The notes beneath the pieces are model-generated. The model saw only the letters and a program-made list of their open reading frames with translations. It made no database searches and was not told where the DNA came from. DNA of 37,911 bases from a virus (lineage: Duplodnaviria; Heunggongvirae; Uroviricota; Caudoviricetes). Below are positions 8,488 to 37,911 of the stretch, in pieces; the first letter of the stretch is position 1; the number at the start of each line of letters is the position of its first letter. Location of the stretch: the IMG/VR virus record IMGVR_UViG_2740892042_000001, positions 1 to 37,911 of that record. One strand, written 5' to 3'. The position numbers and the translations under genes are program-made.

Positions 8488-9840
<1,353 letters not shown>

Positions 9841-10419: not shown

Positions 10420-11272
10420 TCTTGCAACCGTAACACATTTAAGGCCTTCACAACGGCCTGTGGAGCGTCGTGTGGCAGAAGTTGAAGATGGTTATACCCG
10501 TCTTGCAAATGCCCTGTATGAAGAGCTTATCGGCGCAGATTTAACGAAAAATCAGAGCAAGGTTGCCCACGCCATATGCCGTAAAACATACGGCTACGGT
10601 AAAAAGATGGATCGCATCTCTGATAGTCAGTTAGCTCAAATTACCAGGCTGCCAAGACAGAAGGTAAACAAGGCCAAGAATGAGCTTATCGCGATGAAGG
10701 TTATCCTTCGCGAAGGCCAGCAAATCGGTCCTAACAAGAACATCGAAGAATGGCAAATCGAAGGGTGTCACTACTCTGGTGATAATGTCACTACATTGGT
10801 GACAAAAAGTGTCACCAAAACGGTGACAGCGCTGTCACCAAAACAGGGACACACAAAAGAAACTATTACAAAAGAAAAAAGAAATAATAAAAACACTATG
10901 TCCGAAAGTGTTCGGACGGAGTGTGAAAAATCACCTGACCGTCACGAAGAAATCGACAAGGCATTCGAGGAAATATTCTGGTGTGCAGGCATGCGGAAAG
11001 CCGGGAAGAAAAACGCAGCTTCGGCATTCAGAACACAGTTCAGGGAATGGCGTAAAACTACCAGGGGTACGGCAAGCGAGTTTGCCACGATGCTGGCAGA
11101 AGACATCGCATGCAGGAATGGTAAGCAGTTCGGATTCGACAGGTTGTTACCATCGAGCTACCTGAACGGTCAACGCTGGAACGACGAGAAGCCAGAAACT
11201 ATTCAACCACAATCCAAACCATCATCCGCAATCACCGTATCGAAAACTGGCTACGTGTTTTTCGACAGGTGA
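10412..11272 (+). CDS. O: Replication initiator, lambda O-like N-terminal domain
   Basis: N-terminal region (..[54 protein letters not shown]..) resembles lambda O N-domain; iterons inside the gene; C-terminal half differs from lambda O. Confidence 0.85.
10766..10851 (+). repeat. ori: Origin iterons (four ~19-bp TGTCAC-N-GGTGACA-like repeats) followed by an A-rich tract
   Basis: TGTCACTACTCTGGTGAT, TGTCACTACATTGGTGACA, TGTCACCAAAACGGTGACA, TGTCACCAAAACAGGGACA at 20-24 bp spacing; A-rich run 10853-10900; inside the O-like gene as in lambda ori. Confidence 0.7.
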
Positions 11273-13260: not shown

Positions 13261-13336
13261 ATGACCATCTACATCACTGAGCTAATAACAGGCCTGCTGG
13301 TAATCGCAGGCCTTTTTATTTGGGGGAGGGTAAATC

Positions 13337-13543
13337 GTGGTTGAGTTGATTTTTTCTGCATTGAGGATTCTCGGTGCTATGTGGATGGTGGCGACGTTCA
13401 TTGTGGTTGCCAGCAGTTTTGTCCGGTTGGTAGGCGAAGGTAAAGACCTCGTGGGTGTGCTTTTCGGTAGCATTTTCCTGTGGGTGATTATCGGTGTTGC
13501 GCCTGTCGCTGTAGCAAAAATGGCGTGGCGTTTTGTGAGTTGA
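13337..13543 (+). CDS. Small two-helix membrane protein (68 aa)
   Basis: GTG start with GGGGGAGGG RBS; two hydrophobic segments separated by a charged turn. Confidence 0.4.
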   Translation: MVELIFSALRILGAMWMVATFIVVASSFVRLVGEGKDLVGVLFGSIFLWVIIGVAPVAVAKMAWRFVS

Positions 13544-13560
13544 ACTGAGGGTAAGTATCG

Positions 13561-13866
13561 ATGGACGAATCAAGAAAGCAGTTTGAGGAATACGTTGCCA
13601 AAAAATTGAGATTACCATTCGAGATGATAACCGAGGCAAGAAATGGTGATAGGTACTTCGCATTTTCAAGCATGGATATTCGTCACTCCTTAAATGAGTG
13701 GTGGACTTTATGGCAGGCATCGCGAGCAGATATTGAAATAACCGCGCCAAAGTTTATCGACAGCAGAGAAGCATTAGCCAAAGGGTTTACTGTTGATTAT
13801 TCCAATGGCTTTGGTGATGCAATGGATGCTTATGAGGAAAACATCCGCTCTGCTGAGTCAAAGTGA
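13561..13866 (+). CDS. Hypothetical protein (101 aa)
   Basis: Clean ORF between the replication and nin modules. Confidence 0.5.
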   Translation: MDESRKQFEEYVAKKLRLPFEMITEARNGDRYFAFSSMDIRHSLNEWWTLWQASRADIEITAPKFIDSREALAKGFTVDYSNGFGDAMDAYEENIRSAESK

Positions 13867-26586: not shown

Positions 26587-27028
26587 TCTCGTTCTTAAGG
26601 CTTTACGAAAAGCCGGGCTGTATTCCAATGCCACGTTGACAGATGCCGACCCTCAGGAAATTGAAGATGCCATTAATGACCTCGAAGACATGATGGCAGC
26701 ATGGCAGGCGAAAGGTATCGAGCTTGGATATCAGTTTGCGGATACAGAAAACGGCATCATGCCGTTACCTGACGATGATTCAGGTATCCCTGCATGGGCA
26801 AATGATGGCGTCGCTTTGAAACTCGCTGTGCAAGTGTGCATGGATAACGTCATTCAGCCGTCAGATGCTCTCCTTACCGCTGCTGACAGCGCATACCAGA
26901 CAATCTGTATCGCTTTAACCAAAATACCACCACTTGAGCGGCGAAATGACATGCCTCGCGGTAGTGGTAACAAAAGCGCGTTTACGTGGAATCGGTTTTA
27001 CATCGAGAAAGATGATCCGAGTACGTGA
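26567..27028 (+). CDS. Head completion / tail accessory factor (P22 gp4-like)
   Basis: ..KTKGDLV..ALRK.G..S.ATLTD..PQ...DA..DLE.MMA.W.. parallels P22 gp4. Confidence 0.7.
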   Translation: MAKTKGDLVLKALRKAGLYSNATLTDADPQEIEDAINDLEDMMAAWQAKGIELGYQFADTENGIMPLPDDDSGIPAWANDGVALKLAVQVCMDNVIQPSDALLTAADSAYQTICIALTKIPPLERRNDMPRGSGNKSAFTWNRFYIEKDDPST

Positions 27029-30316: not shown

Positions 30317-31732
30317 ATGGCTACGTGGCAACAGGGTATTAATTCTGGTGGTTTTCTGGCTGGCATCGGTACGCAAAACGAGAATGCGCCAAAGGCAAGC
30401 GACATTAACGCAACGCTTGGTCTGATCCGCGAAAACAATGAACTGGCTCGCTCAGGTGCAAATAACGTTGGCCTGACCGCCTTACGTGGTCTGGCTGGAG
30501 TTGCTGATATTTACAATCAGGAACAGCAACAGAAAGCTATTAGTGCGTTCAATAAGGTTCACGCTGATGCATGGGCTTCTGGTGATCCATCGGGACTATT
30601 TAAGTTTGCCCAGGAAAACCCAGCGTTTGTTGCGCAGGCACAACAGGCGTTTTCCGGTCTTAATGAGCAGCAACGCAACGATATGGGCGATTTAGCCATG
30701 AAGGCTAACGTCGCTCTTTCTCAGGGACCGGAAGCCTACAGTAAATTCATTACTGATAACAAGGACAGGTTAAATCGCGTGGGGGCGAATGCTGACTGGA
30801 TGATTCAGACAGGTATTCAGAATCCAGAGCAGCTATCACACATGCTGACTACTATGTCTCTCGGTGCACTTGGGCCAGAAAAGGCGTTTGCTGTTCAGGA
30901 CAAGATGGCTGGTCGTGAGATTGACCGAGGCAGGCTGGCAGAGACAATCCGCAGCAATCAGGCTGGAGAAGCACTTCAGGCGAGAGGGCAAAACCTTTCC
31001 TATCAGTCAGCAATGACTGGACACAATATCGCAGCACAACGCTTGGCTCTGGATCAGCAAGAGTTCGGGTTTAAGATGCAGCAAGCACAGGAAAAGGCTC
31101 AGCAGTTGATTAGCGAAGCACCTAAGCTATCAGTAAACATGGAAAAAGGCATCGAGACGGCTGTAAACAATGCTACAGCATCATCAAACTCAGCCAATTC
31201 TATGAGTGCGCTTGCTCAACAGTTCAGAGCAGAAAAACCAACGACAGGTTTGTTCGGTAACGCACAGAACATGTTCGCAAAACTTACCGGAAGCGATACA
31301 ACATTGCGTGATTTGCGCATCCGCCAAAATGCCCTTGTTAACAGTCAGGTTCTTAAATTCCTACCTCCCGGCCCCGCAACGGATAAAGACGTTGAGATCG
31401 TTCGGCAGGGTGCACCAACTGACATGGATAACCCTGAGACGGTCGCAAGATGGCTTGATGCGATGGCAAACCTTGAGCGACGAAACGCGCAGTTTAATGA
31501 GTTTAAAGCCGAGTGGATGAGCGCGAATGGCAATCCAGGACAATCGCGTAATGGCGGTCAGATATTGGGGTTGGATGTTAAAAAAGGTGAATCATTGGGG
31601 AGTGCCGTTAAGCGGTATATGTCAATGAATACTGACGCAGCGCCAGCACAAGATTCGACACCTTCAGGAGAACCACGGAATCAGGTTGGATCATATACCT
31701 CAAAATCAGGCATTCAATTTACGGTGGAATGA
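30317..31732 (+). CDS. Ejection protein (P22 gp20-like)
   Basis: 471 aa; size and synteny. Confidence 0.65.
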
Positions 31733-33570
31733 TGAAAGTAACTGCAAACGGTAAGACATTTACCTTTCCTGATGGTACGAGCACCGAAGATATTGGCACC
31801 GCCATTGATGAGTATTTTGCTGGTCAGGCTGTTCAGCAACAAACAGTTAATCAGGCCAATAATGCACCAACACGTGAAGAACCATCATTAATGCAACAAG
31901 CTGGCGATTGGCTCACTGGTGGTCAAAGTGCAGGGCAAATTGCAGAACAGGCTGGTCGTGGTCTGGTAAACATACCATTTGACGTATTGCAGGGTGGCGC
32001 AAGTCTGATTAATGCAATCAGTCAGGGGCTTGGTGGGCCAAAAGTATTGGATGATGTCTATCGTCCAGTCGATCGACCGACAGACCCTTATGCGCAAGCT
32101 GGAGAAACAATTGGCGGGTATTTAGTTCCAGGAGTTGGAACGGCAGGAAGCATGGCTATTGGATCACTGGCAGAGGCCGCAAATCAGAAAGGCGATTTCG
32201 CACAAAATGCAGCTAAAAATGCCGGAGTTAACCTTGCCGCTCAGGGTGTTCTTTCCGCAGCAGCAAAGGGAATAGGGCGTGGAATAACGGCTATAAAAGG
32301 TGATATTGCGCCAGAAGTGGCGAAGAAAATTGCCACATCAGAATCGATGGGCGTGACACCAATGACATCTGATGTTATCCCGCCGAAAAATGCTTTCACT
32401 CGCGGACTTACTCAGGATGCTGAGGGGGCTTTGCTCGGGACAGGCTCAAAGCGAGCGGAGCAATATGCAACGCGTAGTAAGCTGGTAAGCAATTATTTTG
32501 ACCGTTTTGGTGAGTACAACCCTGATGATGTGGTGAAATCTCTTACCACCACGTTAAGGGGGCGGAAGGATGCCGCTGGCGCTGTTATCAATGACGTCAC
32601 CAATAAAATGGGTAATGCCGCAGTTGATACCACAAATACCATGAATGCTCTGAATACAGCGATCGCAAGACAGGAACGGCTTGGGACGTCTGCCAATCAA
32701 AGCCTGCTTACATCCTTGCGTAACCTACGTGAAGAATTAGCAAACCCTGCAACTGATTTGGATGTTACGTTTGATCTCTTGCGTCAGCACAGAACAGCAT
32801 TTAGATCCAATGTTCAGGGAGATGCTATGGTCTTCCCCAACCAGGCAAAAGCAGCTACCAATATGGTAGAGAATGCAATGTCAAAAGATCTTCGTAACGC
32901 AGTTGCAAAAAACCTCGGTGCATCAGACGCAGCAAAATACCTTAAAGCAAACTCCGATTATGCAAACGTTTATAATAAGGTGCTTAATAAAAACATTGCT
33001 AACAAGCTCAACAAGGCAAGCAGTGAAGCCAGTCCTGAACTTATAAATACCGTTGTATTAAGCAGAAAACCATCTGACGTGAAACGAATCTGGAGCGCAT
33101 TGGATGATAAAGGGAAAGATGCTATGCGTGCAGCTTACGTCAGCAAAATAGCGGAAAAATCCGGTGACTCTCCAGCCAAGTTCATCACTGAAGTTAATAA
33201 GCTGAAATCTCAGTCAGGCGGTGAAATTTACAACACTATTTTTTCTGGAAAGCACATGAAAGAGCTTGATGCTCTTCATGAAGTTCTACAGCAAACAGCA
33301 AGGTCAGACACCGCAAATGTAGTAACTCAGACGGGGCAATCGCAAGCCAACAGGATAAGGACGATTGGCGCAACTGCGACTCTTGGCGTATCAATGGGGC
33401 TTGAGGCTGGTTTCGGTGCAATGATGCGCTTGTATGAGTCCAAAGCAGCAAGGAATGCGCTCTTACGTCTGGCAAACACCAAAGCAGGAACACCAGCCTA
33501 TGAAAGAGCGTTGAGTAACGCTGCAAATGCCATCAGGCCGCTGCTTGCTACTGAGGCAACACAGCAGTAA
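31729..33570 (+). CDS. Ejection protein (P22 gp16-like)
   Basis: 613 aa; size and synteny; overlaps upstream gene. Confidence 0.65.
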
Positions 33571-33594
33571 CGTATGGGGAATTGGATTCAATCG

Positions 33595-33984
33595 TTAACA
33601 TTTTCTTTTTACTTTTCCAACAAAAGCTTTGGTTGAATCCATATTCCCATAACCAGAAATGGTTTTTGACATTAAAACTGTTCCAGTAGGATGTATTACC
33701 CATGAGTCGATAACGCGTTGAGTTTCGCCATTCGCGCCGATTCCTATGATGGAGTTTTTAGACAATGCTTTGTAAGCCATGCCGCCTGCATCTGTCCCAG
33801 AATATGTGATGCTGGCATCTTCACCGTTTGTCTTAATGATGAATGTTCCACTAAAACCATCTTCTTCCGGATGGAAATTATTTCGTTCTGAATAGCTTAT
33901 TCCGCGCATATCTCCAACGACCCAGCACTCTGCTGTAGCCCCAAAAGATATGAATAAGAACATAGCAGTAAGAAATTGCTTCAC
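33595..33984 (-). CDS. Secreted protein with signal peptide, paralog of the cI-linked gene
   Basis: MKQFLTAMFLFISFGATA-ECW..; shares ECW start of mature chain, internal NG(D/E) and C-terminal STK(A/S)FVG..C with 8488..8892. Confidence 0.6.
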   Translation of the reverse strand: MKQFLTAMFLFISFGATAECWVVGDMRGISYSERNNFHPEEDGFSGTFIIKTNGEDASITYSGTDAGGMAYKALSKNSIIGIGANGETQRVIDSWVIHPTGTVLMSKTISGYGNMDSTKAFVGKVKRKC

Positions 33985-34101
33985 ACCAACCTCCTTAGTT
34001 TTGAGCAGGATACCATGAAAAAAGTAAACATCTTTTGCCTACTTCACATTTGAATGGTTTGTCATTAGGATGTTTCCGGTTTTTTAAATATGGAAATTGA
34101 T

Positions 34102-34521
34102 ATGAAGAGGATTATTGGCGTCGTTGCTGGCGCTATGATGTTATCTGGGTGCGCAACTATTGTTGGTGATGAAACGCAACTTGTGCAAGTGAACAGCAAT
34201 CCTTCCGGTGCGAGCTTTAAGGTAAAAGACGAATCAGGCGTGATTGTTGCGCAAGGTAAGACCCCGCAAGGAGTAACTCTTGCCAAGTCAGATGGTAGTT
34301 ATTTTGGCAAAAAGAGCTACCAGATCACTATGGAGAAGGATGGGTACGAACCAGTTACCCTGCCAATAAAAGCCAATGCTAATGGTTGGTATATTGGTGG
34401 AAACCTTGTGTTTGGTGGGTTAATTGGTTGGCTTGCTGTAGATCCATTTAATGGTGGGATGTATACCTTGAAGCCTAAAGAGGCAAATGCATCCCTTATA
34501 CCGTCCACAAAGCAAGACTAA
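34102..34521 (+). CDS. Lipoprotein (lipobox LSGC)
   Basis: MKRIIGVVAGAMMLSGC.. signal with lipobox; glycine-zipper-like C-terminal segment; start could also be ATG 34090. Confidence 0.6.
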   Translation: MKRIIGVVAGAMMLSGCATIVGDETQLVQVNSNPSGASFKVKDESGVIVAQGKTPQGVTLAKSDGSYFGKKSYQITMEKDGYEPVTLPIKANANGWYIGGNLVFGGLIGWLAVDPFNGGMYTLKPKEANASLIPSTKQD

Positions 34522-34537
34522 TAAATGGAACCCACCA

Positions 34538-34789
34538 TCAGGTGGGTTTTTTGTACAAATCCTTCAGCGTATCAAACACCATCTTCTTAACAAGTTCAGA
34601 CTGCTCATCAGCGATGCGTTCCGCATCGTCTCGATAGCCTGAAATTTTGGATGGCTTTGATACAGCATCAGTAACTATCTGAACTAATTCTGAATTAAGA
34701 GAGCGGCCATTGGATTTGGCTCGCTGTTTTAGTTTTTCCTTTAATTCGTAAGGTAGCCGCAGATTAAATTGCGGGTCATCTCTTCCCAT
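34538..34789 (-). CDS. mnt: Mnt-type ribbon-helix-helix repressor
   Basis: 83 aa MGRDDPQFNLRLPYELKEKLKQRAKSNGRSLNSELVQIV..SELVKKMVFDTLKDLYKK parallels P22 Mnt. Confidence 0.85.
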   Translation of the reverse strand: MGRDDPQFNLRLPYELKEKLKQRAKSNGRSLNSELVQIVTDAVSKPSKISGYRDDAERIADEQSELVKKMVFDTLKDLYKKPT

Positions 34790-34852
34790 TCTTGATGCCT
34801 CGCTTTTGTGAGTGGATCGGCATCTTATTATCTGCTGGTTGCATCCTCAATA

Positions 34853-34867
34853 AGACCACAGTGGTCT
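34853..34867. promoter_or_regulatory. Perfect 15-bp palindrome AGACCACAGTGGTCT (candidate Mnt operator)
   Basis: Inverted repeat in the mnt-tailspike intergenic region, 64 bp upstream of mnt. Confidence 0.5.
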
Positions 34868-34935
34868 CTTTGTTCGATTAATAATGCATCACTGTGGCAA
34901 TGCTGCGGCGATTCCTTGTATCTGGAGCAAATTAA

Positions 34936-37587
34936 ATGACAGACATTACAGCCAATGTTGTAGTCAGCATGCCTTCGCAACTCTTCACTATGGCTCGTTC
35001 TTTTAAAGCCGTAGCTAATGGAAAGATTTATATCGGTAAAATTGACACTGACCCAGTAAATCCTGAAAACCAGATTCAGGTTTATGTGGAGAATGAAGAC
35101 GGTTCTCACGTTCCTGTTTCGCAACCAATAATCATTAACGCTGCTGGATATCCGGTATATAACGGACAGATTGCCAAATTCGTTACCGTGCAAGGCCATT
35201 CTATGGCTGTTTATGATGCGTATGGTTCGCAGCAGTTCTATTTTCCAAACATTCTGAAATATGATCCTGATCAGTTTAAACAAGAACTAGAGAATAAGTT
35301 TAACAATGGTTCAACTCCATCAATTATAAATTATAAGTACGGTCTTCCAGAAGAAGTAGACGGAGCAACACAAAGGACGCTACAGGATAAACTTGATGAC
35401 CATGTAAATGTTCGCGATTTTGGTGCAAAAGGGGATGGCATTACTGACGATACAGACGCAATAACAAATGCCATCATTTACTGCGCATCTAACGGAAAAC
35501 GCCTGAAGTGGGATTCTGGTGTGTATTTGATTAGCCGCATAAAATGCGGCGGGGATAATTATAACTATGACTGGGTAGCTGATGGCAAGGTTGTCTTAAA
35601 GTCAACCGCAAAAGAGCCTCTTGGCCCAAACTGGATTGATGATTATTTCATAAGACTCGAAGGTGGAGATGCCACGCCAATTGACTATAATTCAACAATA
35701 AATCCTGGTGACACATCAATATCAATTAACTCAGCATATTCTGTTGATGCAGGCGATATAATTATGATTCATGGCAATCGCTTAATTCAGACAGATAATA
35801 GAGGACAGGCTTGTGAAGGTGAAATGCATGTTGTTACTGCTTTTGATAATGCAACAAAAAAAGCGGAGATATCAGGTGCATTTTATTTTTTCTACTCTGC
35901 GAGCAATGATTACTCAACGACCGTAACAGCATCTGTATCCGGAGGTGAATTCTCATTTGGTAATGATGCAACATTAACAAAACAATACAATCAGGTAAAA
36001 GTAACAGGTGTCACCGGAGCTAACGCCGGAATATCAAGATACATAACTCATTGGGATTACGACACTAAAACAGCAAAATTTGAATATGCTCAGGGACCAT
36101 TCCCGTTTAAACCATCTGTTGGAGACGTGTTTAAAATCACAAGAAAGGCAAATATATATAAAAGAAAACCATGCTACGGCAGAATTGTCGGTGATTTCAA
36201 TTTTGAAAGACCTGTCACGCAGAACGCATCTCCTGGTGATTTGGGGTTCCGTGGTCTTGTGATAGATGGCGCTGTTGATATGCATATAGAAGGAATAAAA
36301 CTAATCGGCTTTTCAGAAACTGGAATTTTTCTTGAGTCATGCTACAGAACGAAAATAATAGAACCATATATTGAATACTCAAACCGTGCATATGATTTAA
36401 CAAATGGCACTGGTTATGGTGTTGAAATATACAATAGCAGCTATTGCACAGTCGTGGATATGATAGCATTTGCTTGCAGGAGGGGGCTTGATGTAAGCGG
36501 GACTCAAATGGTATCACTGTATAATAACATTATAAATCCAACGATGATGGGGGGTGGAACTGCATATGATGGAGTTAAATTTTTCCCTGATGGCGATACA
36601 AGAAATTCATGTTGCGGTGGACACGGCCCATCATACGAAACAACTTTTACAGGCGGCAATTCAGTCAATTTGTATTATGCTGGTGTAATACGCGGATTAA
36701 ATGAAGTGTATGATGGAATGAACGCCAGGGGATTTAGCGGCCCGGCTCCTTTTTTTGTAAGATATAGTGGTGGTGGGTTCACGATTCAGAACTGTAATTA
36801 TATTGATGGTTTTACTGAGATGTCTTTGCCATACAACTTGAGGTACAAACCTGTGAATGCAACTCAACGTAATCACAGACCTCTTGTTTTTATTGAAACA
36901 ACTCTGGCACAGACAGACAGAAACTCTTACTATAAAGAACTTCCTGTTGTTATTAAGAATAATACCGCAAGGACTGTTCTCAAGGGCTTTTTACGTTTTG
37001 AGGTTAATGATGGCCTCACCCCTCTAATCCAAAATATTTATTTTGGTGGTAATTTATGCATGGCGAACCCAGAAACATCAGACTCTGTATCAGGGCAAAC
37101 AGAGGCAGTAATGGTTTATTCATCTGTTCCTGGTGCAATAATTGTTCGAAATTTCCATGATCTTGGCGGTAACAGAATTGTTCCTGTTGGAGCAGGATAC
37201 AGATACTGCGGTATGTTCAACACGCCAGATGGAATAGCAGGAACAATAGTTCAACCAGACGGAAAATATCTAATAACACTTGAAGCCAACAAATCTACAA
37301 GTATCCTTGTTGGTGGATACGTCCCATGTGTTCGCCTTGATATGCACGACATACTTGATATTCATGGGGTAATTGCAGTTGGTGTTCTTATTCATCGTGG
37401 TGAGGCAATTGATTTTTCTCCTTTAAAAGAAATTAATAAGCAAAATGTTGTATTGAAAACCGGAGTTCTTTCAGATAATGATGGTGATGAAAATAACTTA
37501 AATATTTCGTTTGACTTTGCAACCATATATTTAAGCAACAAGATGCCAAATAAGATTCAACTATCTATTGAAGTATCAGGAGTGTAA
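34936..37587 (+). CDS. Tailspike protein (P22-type head-binding N-domain, beta-helix receptor-binding body)
   Basis: N-terminal ~115 aa [46 protein letters not shown].. matches the P22/Sf6/HK620 head-binding domain; the remaining ~770 aa are AT-rich and Asn/Gly/Tyr-rich. Confidence 0.9.
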
Positions 37588-37623
37588 TTGTATCAATTTG
37601 CTAAATTAAAAAAGGATAAAAAT

Positions 37624-37911
37624 ATGGATACAACACCAATAACACATGCAGTATGCGCGGTTATTGCGCAGATACTGGTTGGCCTTTCTACCGGAAACTT
37701 GGCTTACGGTGCGATAGCCGGTTGTACGTTCTTCATTGCGCGTGAACACACCCAGGCAGAATATCGCTGGATAGAAAAGTTTGGGAAAGGGAAACGTATC
37801 AACCTGCCATGGTGGGGAGGTTTTGATCCACGCGTGTGGGATGTTGGAAGTCTGTTGGATTTTTCTTTCCCAATTATCGGATGCTTATTGGTATGGATTC
37901 TTGCATCGTAG
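37624..37911 (+). CDS. Hypothetical membrane protein (95 aa) downstream of tailspike
   Basis: ATG 37624 with AAGGAT RBS; two hydrophobic segments; stop codon is the last 3 bases of the window. Confidence 0.5.
   Translation: MDTTPITHAVCAVIAQILVGLSTGNLAYGAIAGCTFFIAREHTQAEYRWIEKFGKGKRINLPWWGGFDPRVWDVGSLLDFSFPIIGCLLVWILAS

Follow-up and report, generated by a model that had tools for sequence, protein, structure and literature searches.

The window analysed here, a stretch of DNA of 37,911 nucleotides, is a P22-like (Lederbergvirus-type) temperate phage genome or prophage. It carries an integrase gene at 1-1305 on the minus strand, a gene for a C2-like cleavable repressor at 8889-9521 and a gene for a gene 16-like injection protein at 31729-33570, with the late genes lying between the latter two. 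The first open reading frame after gene 16 belongs to phrog_2651 (33595-33984, minus strand) and is followed by a lipoprotein-like open reading frame (34090-34521, plus strand), the repressor gene mnt (34538-34789, minus strand, 83 aa), a spacer of 146 nt (34790-34935) and the tailspike gene (34936-37587, plus strand). A terminator scan placed a bidirectional intrinsic terminator at 34529-34548, common to the lipoprotein-like gene and mnt; its hairpin has folding energies of -15.0 (plus strand) and -14.0 kcal/mol (minus strand), and a U-run is present on the former. The tailspike has 883 aa and consists of a P22-type head-binding domain (Pfam Head_binding, E 1.1e-66) and then a pectate-lyase-like receptor domain. 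The last 4.3 kb (33600-37911) are poorer in GC, at 0.35–0.44 compared with about 0.48 in the late genes.

An earlier note on this DNA had described an 83-aa Mnt-like gene and a divergent tailspike gene, and both descriptions hold. By its domain content, the product of 34538-34789 is a true Mnt. A ribbon-helix-helix (Arc-like) domain was found at residues 3–50 (Pfam Arc PF03869, E 2.8e-22), and a C-terminal coiled-coil tetramerisation domain at residues 53–80 (Pfam Repressor_Mnt PF11423, E 2.2e-18). The solved domains of P22 Mnt matched with E 2.8e-34 (PDB 1MNT) and E 3.1e-12 (1QEY), and the identity to P22 Mnt was 75.9% across all 83 residues. The N-terminal ribbon reads GRDDPQFNLRL and is thus of the Gln6 type. 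Its residues QFNLR are identical to those of P22 Arc.

The perfect 15-bp palindrome reported in the same note was recovered as AGACCACAGTGGTCT at 34853-34867. It is the sole copy in the window, even if up to 3 mismatches are allowed. The dyad alone is only modestly unlikely: a perfect dyad with arms of ≥7 occurred in 516 of 20000 shuffles of the spacer (p ~0.026), and about 10 such dyads are present in the window. It was accepted as real because its position is homologous to that of the P22 operator and because it is conserved, and not because of the palindrome alone. The annotated P22 operator, AGGTCCACGGTGGACCT, comes after CTCAATA, and so does the dyad of the window; in P22, the -35 of the mnt promoter lies in the complement of this element. 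The palindrome is therefore regarded as the probable Mnt operator (O_mnt), with 17 bp at 34852-34868 (AAGACCAC-A-GTGGTCTC) and conserved core arms at 34854-34859 and 34861-34866. The census of the window also returned the perfect dyads TATAATAGTTCACTATTATA (2678-2697), GGTGACAGCGCTGTCACC (10822-10839) and AACGGCATCATGCCGTT (26750-26766). The second of these lies inside an O-like replication gene and is possibly origin-related.

The predicted promoter of mnt (Pmnt) lies on the minus strand between the dyad and the gene. Its -35 hexamer, TTGAGG (34845-34850), was assigned by positional homology to the annotated Pmnt of P22 (TTGAGA) and is conserved in relatives. The -10 hexamer, TAAGAT (34822-34827), follows after 17 nt and was aligned to the hexamers of P22 (TATCAT) and of the L/ST160 type (TATGAT). 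With 8 of 12 hexamer matches overall, this promoter stays under the threshold of the promoter scan. The dyad abuts the -35 hexamer, in the same geometry as in the annotated Omnt/Pmnt of P22. Its centre is located ~45 nt upstream of the predicted Pmnt start, which is not a classical repression position. On the plus strand, alignment to P22 and to an ant-carrying Gln6-type module identified a decayed relic of the ant promoter (Pant), comprising TCGGCA at 34817-34822, 17 nt and TGCATC at 34840-34845. The relic has 6 of 12 hexamer matches; the same place reads TTGACA-17-TATATT in P22, and the -10 position reads TATATC in phage L. The promoter scan was negative at the Pant position, meaning that no functional Pant overlapped by O_mnt was detected.

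Directly right of the operator lies a variable junction (34869-34888), where P22 has arc-sar-ant and where relatives show indels of 11–13 nt. It is followed on the plus strand by the tailspike leader (34889-34935), which by alignment is homologous to the gene 9 leader of P22 (4157-4204 of our P22 locus, L004) and to that of phage L, and which contains a ribosome binding site, GGAG, at 34924-34927. Homology to P22 breaks immediately right of the operator and resumes ~47 nt before the tailspike ATG. In P22 itself, two direct copies of AAAATTCACCGTAGCCA(C/T)GCT are found between the ant terminator and gene 9 (L004 4043-4063 and 4153-4173), and mnt-only phages have one copy-like segment of it at the junction. 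This element may mark a module-exchange boundary.

The statement of the earlier note that arc and ant are missing was upheld for the entire window, remnants included. A tblastn search of the whole window with P22 Arc found mnt itself only, and the best match with P22 Ant had an E of 0.34. Neither SieA nor orf59a of P22 gave a match to the whole window beyond mnt itself, and a PHROGs scan of ~40 open reading frames of the window found no antirepressor. PADLOC and NCBIfam returned nothing useful for mnt, for accessory open reading frames elsewhere (4 in PADLOC, 3 in NCBIfam) or for the open reading frame after the tailspike. A 43-aa open reading frame within the spacer (34808-34939) had no Pfam match and is considered non-coding because it crosses the stretch that carries 11–13-nt indels in relatives. 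The orphan state of mnt could have been called into question by an intact antirepressor elsewhere under the same operator; none was found in the window, where the operator is single-copy. For some relatives, a spacer of ~424 nt had suggested an extra gene under the operator. This was an offset artefact of tblastn caused by divergent tailspike N-termini, and the true length is 135–147 nt.

In P22, the divergent promoters Pant and Pmnt overlap and are the targets of Arc and Mnt (PMC2724298). The immI region of P22 (mnt - Pmnt/Pant - Oarc/Omnt - arc - sar - ant) and the window share the orientation of mnt, the geometry of Pmnt, the position of the 17-bp dyad and the gene 9 leader. The window, however, lacks arc, sar and ant as well as the Arc operator, and its Pant hexamers are decayed. 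The operator half-site is AAGACCAC in the window and AGGTCCAC in P22, while the ribbons are PQFNLRLP and PHFNFRMP, respectively. Moreover, other genes stand in the place of sieA and orf59a of P22.

The annotations of phage L, ST160 and Gally show the same mnt-spacer-tailspike layout, and a collinear match was obtained for ST64T, ST104, SE1, SPN9CC and vB_EcoP-720R6. At a coverage of ≥80%, the layout is present in 108 of 5426 complete Escherichia coli genomes. The gene order of L, ST64T, ST104, ST160 and SE1 is gene 16, unrelated small gene(s), mnt on the minus strand, a spacer of 135–147 nt and the tailspike gene. The ribbon (MGRDDPQFNLRLPY), the dyad arms and the place of Pmnt in the L/ST160 type are as in the window. 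The Mnt proteins of these five phages are 70–92% identical to that of the window, with phage L diverging in the C-terminal half. They differ from the window in the centre base of the dyad (C or T instead of A), in a 13-column gap right of the operator (spacer 11 nt shorter), in the hexamers of Pmnt (TTGTGG/TATGAT) and in the accessory genes between gene 16 and mnt. Another close counterpart is Gally, an Escherichia phage that is a prophage of LF82. Its GALLYPH_15, annotated as 'Mnt repressor', is 100% identical to Mnt of the window, the region of mnt, spacer and tailspike start is 96.9% identical, and the neighbours are the same (a lipoprotein-like gene and a phrog_2651 gene). The Gally tailspike has 799 aa compared with 883 aa in the window and differs in the receptor-binding part; the early regions are mosaic.

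A region of this kind was named 'ant moron' by Villafane et al. (2008; PMC2629481), and its mnt-only form has been described in the literature (PMC2629481; Zaworski 2020, PMC8022706). In the window, mnt likewise lies between gene 16 and the tailspike gene, is divergent from and directly upstream of the latter, and is accompanied by neither arc, ant nor sieA. What the window shows is the mnt-only 'ant moron' in its standard, published form for P22-like phages, a widespread, ordinary and already known configuration that is also documented in many prophages of E. coli and Salmonella. The earlier note had presented the orphan layout as unusual. This view was not sustained, as the same layout occurs in L, ST64T, ST104, ST160, SE1 and Gally and in 68 of 68 Gln6-type loci collected. 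A second, unrelated mnt-only type also adjoins the tailspike gene in Sf101 (L086), VSe13 (L087) and IME10. It has the ribbon QFHLRL and, in the same place, an imperfect dyad, GTACC-N5-GGTAT, after CAAT. Its existence indicates that loss of arc and ant with retention of mnt happened more than once. Genome papers on ST64T, ST104, epsilon34 and phage L had already brought the mnt-only arrangement into the literature. The value of the present analysis is modest and concerns a question left by those papers, i.e. whether a lone mnt is functional or decaying.

The 68 loci with the ribbon of the window comprised 63 IMG/VR contigs (from 80), phage L, ST160, Gally, an E. coli chromosome and the window. 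Each of them had a spacer of 135–147 nt to the tailspike gene and neither arc nor ant. Diversity per site was computed over the 34 distinct spacers of these loci. The twelve core arm positions of the dyad showed the lowest value in the spacer (0.024 differences per site), and the centre base, at which A, G, C and T all occur, showed the highest (0.742). Intermediate values were found for Pmnt and the 5' UTR (0.06–0.11) and for the stretch directly right of the right arm (34869-34905, with indels; 0.32). No difference separated the E. coli type from the Salmonella type at the twelve core arm positions. This contrast of arms and centre is the signature expected of a dyad that is read by a protein not contacting the centre.

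For mnt, the median dN/dS was 0.09 over 184 pairs of mnt-only loci; comparing the window with ST160 gave a dS of 0.44 and a dN of 0.048. Judged from these substitution rates, mnt is under strong purifying selection. Pant, in contrast, has decayed.

All 68 loci with the ribbon GRDDPQFNLRL carried AAGACCAC-N-GTGGTC or, in six loci, a single-base variant of it. Arc and ant were present at all loci with the P22 ribbon MARDDPHFNFRM, and the His6 loci whose spacer was unbroken all carried AGGTCCAC-N-GTGGACC or differed from it by one base. These pairings point to a second specificity class of Mnt, in which a Gln6 ribbon would go with AAGACCAC-N-GTGGTC, as opposed to His6 with AGGTCCAC-N-GTGGACC in P22. 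Residue 6 of Mnt reportedly governs specificity, a view that goes back to Youderian in 1983 and to Knight and Sauer in 1989. A simple code in which residue 6 sets the operator was ruled out by the ribbon ARNDPQFNVRM, which also has Gln6 and is paired with AGTAGTAC-G-GTACTAT.

The combination of ribbon and operator seen in the window was found together with arc and ant in seven ES18-like or Erwinia-phage-like siphovirus contigs (L090, L210-212, L290, L291 and L293). Their Mnt arm and ribbon match (ARDDPQFNLRM), and their operator is AAGACCACGGTGGTCTC, which is preceded by CAATA and differs from that of the window at the centre base only. The operator overlaps the start of a consensus Pant (TTGACA-17-CATTAT) or lies just downstream of it, and arc and ant follow. 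These modules, which retain arc, ant and the consensus Pant, are located among siphovirus tail genes with no tailspike gene beside them. As the Gln6 ribbon and its operator occur here with an intact Pant-arc-ant, the pair appears to be a working immI specificity elsewhere. In L290, L291 and L293, the C-terminal domain of Mnt is different and longer (110–127 aa when counted from ARDDPQ), so that domains may have been shuffled in the Mnt family.

Other searches for such modules were less productive. Scanning viral contigs for the bare operator pattern yielded L090, but the matches were mostly due to chance, with 91 of the 120 loci lacking Mnt. A pattern scan of genome contigs for Mnt gave 600 matches, none of which was confirmed. 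A Gln6-type module with ant was also sought by blastn in the 5426 complete E. coli genomes, and the two modules inspected were of the His6/P22 type. The Salmonella ES18-like phages SPN3UB and Oslo were considered as matching ant-carrying phages and rejected, since they have other specificities. The class of Gln6 with AAGACCAC is directly testable.

Taken together, the most likely reading, to which we assign a probability of roughly 0.55, is that in this mnt-only form of immI, with arc-sar-ant missing, Mnt and its operator would be a live feedback cassette, possibly conferring immunity in trans. A tetramer of Mnt would bind the dyad at 34852-34868, which also lies over the Pant relic. In cis, bound Mnt would exert feedback of either sign on Pmnt and would block residual rightward transcription across the spacer and the Pant relic. 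There is no antirepressor to be controlled in cis, so the selective value would probably lie in trans: Pant of incoming phages with the same operator would be shut off, and the C2-type repressor of the prophage would thereby be protected from incoming Ant. A purely trans role would not preserve a site in cis, and hence binding of Mnt should matter locally as well.

Autoregulation of mnt is plausible on this evidence because the operator abuts the -35 hexamer of Pmnt as in P22 and is conserved. Immunity against ant-carrying phages of the same operator would plausibly be conferred in trans, with the matching ant-carrying modules known from contigs alone. Three findings argue that selection maintains the lone mnt: the pattern in which the operator is conserved, its pairing with the ribbon and the dN/dS of ~0.09. 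If immunity in trans is true, the locus would be a further case in which prophages retain, for defence, a mobile regulatory module reduced to its repressor half.

Published expression data of Gally bear on the alternatives. In LB-grown lysogens, Gally mnt was at background, with a log2(fpkm+5) of 3.6–3.9 (PMC9928086, Misson 2023). In macrophage samples, it reached 8.3–9.1, a 40-fold induction (log2 fold change 5.31, q 2.5e-17; PMC9928086). The tailspike gene rose together with mnt and three neighbouring genes (log2 fold change of the tailspike gene 4.42), the injection gene just upstream stayed at 3.6–4.2, and deletion of mnt left macrophage survival unchanged (PMC9928086). GALLYPH_14, the homologue of the lipoprotein-like open reading frame at 34090-34521, was the top-expressed gene of the region in the LF82 non-LB samples, macrophages included (PMC9928086, supplementary tables). 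The joint induction of mnt and tailspike argues against Mnt simply repressing a tailspike promoter. The five co-induced genes correspond to the low-GC right end of the window (33600-37911). With the injection gene staying flat, their induction indicates that this end of the prophage does not rely on the late operon for its transcription, so that a further regulatory role is conceivable.

The earlier note had suggested that Mnt may autoregulate or may instead control the tailspike or accessory genes; on the latter reading, Mnt would have been re-targeted to repress a promoter of the tailspike gene or of neighbouring accessory genes. The operator is situated 68 nt upstream of the tailspike ATG, and P22 transcripts from Pant run toward gene 9, for which Villafane et al. 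speculate that Mnt and Arc affect tailspike levels (PMC2629481). The tailspike transcripts of the Gally prophage state, with injection genes at background, likewise require some transcription independent of the late operon. The local sequence does not favour such a target, however. No sigma-70-like site, and hence no rightward promoter of this type, was detected in 34400-35100, where 1.8 sites are expected by chance. Pant is decayed in both its -10 (TGCATC) and its -35 (TCGGCA), and conservation within the spacer is lowest between operator and leader, where indels also occur. The operator is unique in the window, so that no other gene has one. Finally, a simple repressor and its target should respond reciprocally, whereas mnt (5.3) and tailspike (4.4) of Gally rise jointly with three neighbours. 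We consider control of the tailspike or accessory genes unlikely, and the proposal could not be supported in this form.

A rather doubtful extension is that Mnt and its operator are no leftover but form a prophage-state switch at a divergent control region, which would gate expression of the tailspike and the flanking low-GC accessory genes, independently of the late operon, by host environment, for which the co-induction in macrophages seen in Gally is an example, or that P22-like prophages would retain them as a dedicated 'anti-antirepressor' defence against superinfecting phages that carry ant and belong to the same operator class.

The locus could also be a non-functional remnant, left by an immI that degrades after deletion of arc and ant, with an inert Mnt and an inert palindrome. 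This possibility was raised for phage L by Zaworski et al., and classical genetics did not find a functional immI in that phage (PMC8022706). The background level of Gally mnt in LB and the deletion without a macrophage phenotype (PMC9928086) agree with it. Moreover, Mnt is truncated at 52 aa in two loci (L064 and L069), and single-base changes in the operator arms are present in six (L014, L027, L036, L043, L055 and L064), which indicates that some copies are decaying. An inert locus should nevertheless not show a dN/dS of ~0.09 at a dS of up to 0.44, nor operator arms that the E. coli and Salmonella lineages share unchanged next to a centre and a right flank that vary freely. None of the 68 loci has lost the layout, which is also intact in at least 108 E. 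coli genomes, and the independent type of Sf101, IME10 and VSe13 likewise keeps a dyad at the same place. Decay of the locus as a whole is therefore improbable.

It is very improbable that the palindrome is an RNA hairpin or a weak intrinsic terminator modulating read-through of the late operon into the tailspike gene and not a protein site: 34853-34867 (plus strand) came up in the terminator scan, the fold has -8.7 kcal/mol (z -2.6) and some relatives have a T-run after the dyad (GTGGTCGTATTTTTTT), but the stem, with 6 bp of which 3 are G-C pairs, is weak, a T-run is lacking in the window and in the L/ST160 type, variation is one-sided and breaks the pairing with compensatory changes never seen, the exact sequence is kept beyond mere pairing, the same sequence lies at the Pant transcription start of ant-carrying modules like the P22 operator, and there was no credible Rfam match over 33500-35200.

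Some minor observations concern the accessory genes of the window. An open reading frame of 144 aa at 13316-13750 (minus strand), antisense to the nin region, was without a match in PHROGs and PADLOC and may be a moron, or may be no gene at all. The lipoprotein-like open reading frame at 34090-34521 was assigned to phrog_6823 and had a weak PEGA match. The phrog_2651 open reading frame after gene 16 has a diverged paralogue at 8488-8964 (minus strand; 29% identical, E 2e-12). Both have signal-peptide-like N-termini and no PADLOC or NCBIfam match. Their locations, right downstream of the gene for the C2-like repressor (8488-8964) and right after gene 16 (33595-33984), are those of sieB and sieA in P22; the two paralogues may be exclusion or moron genes.
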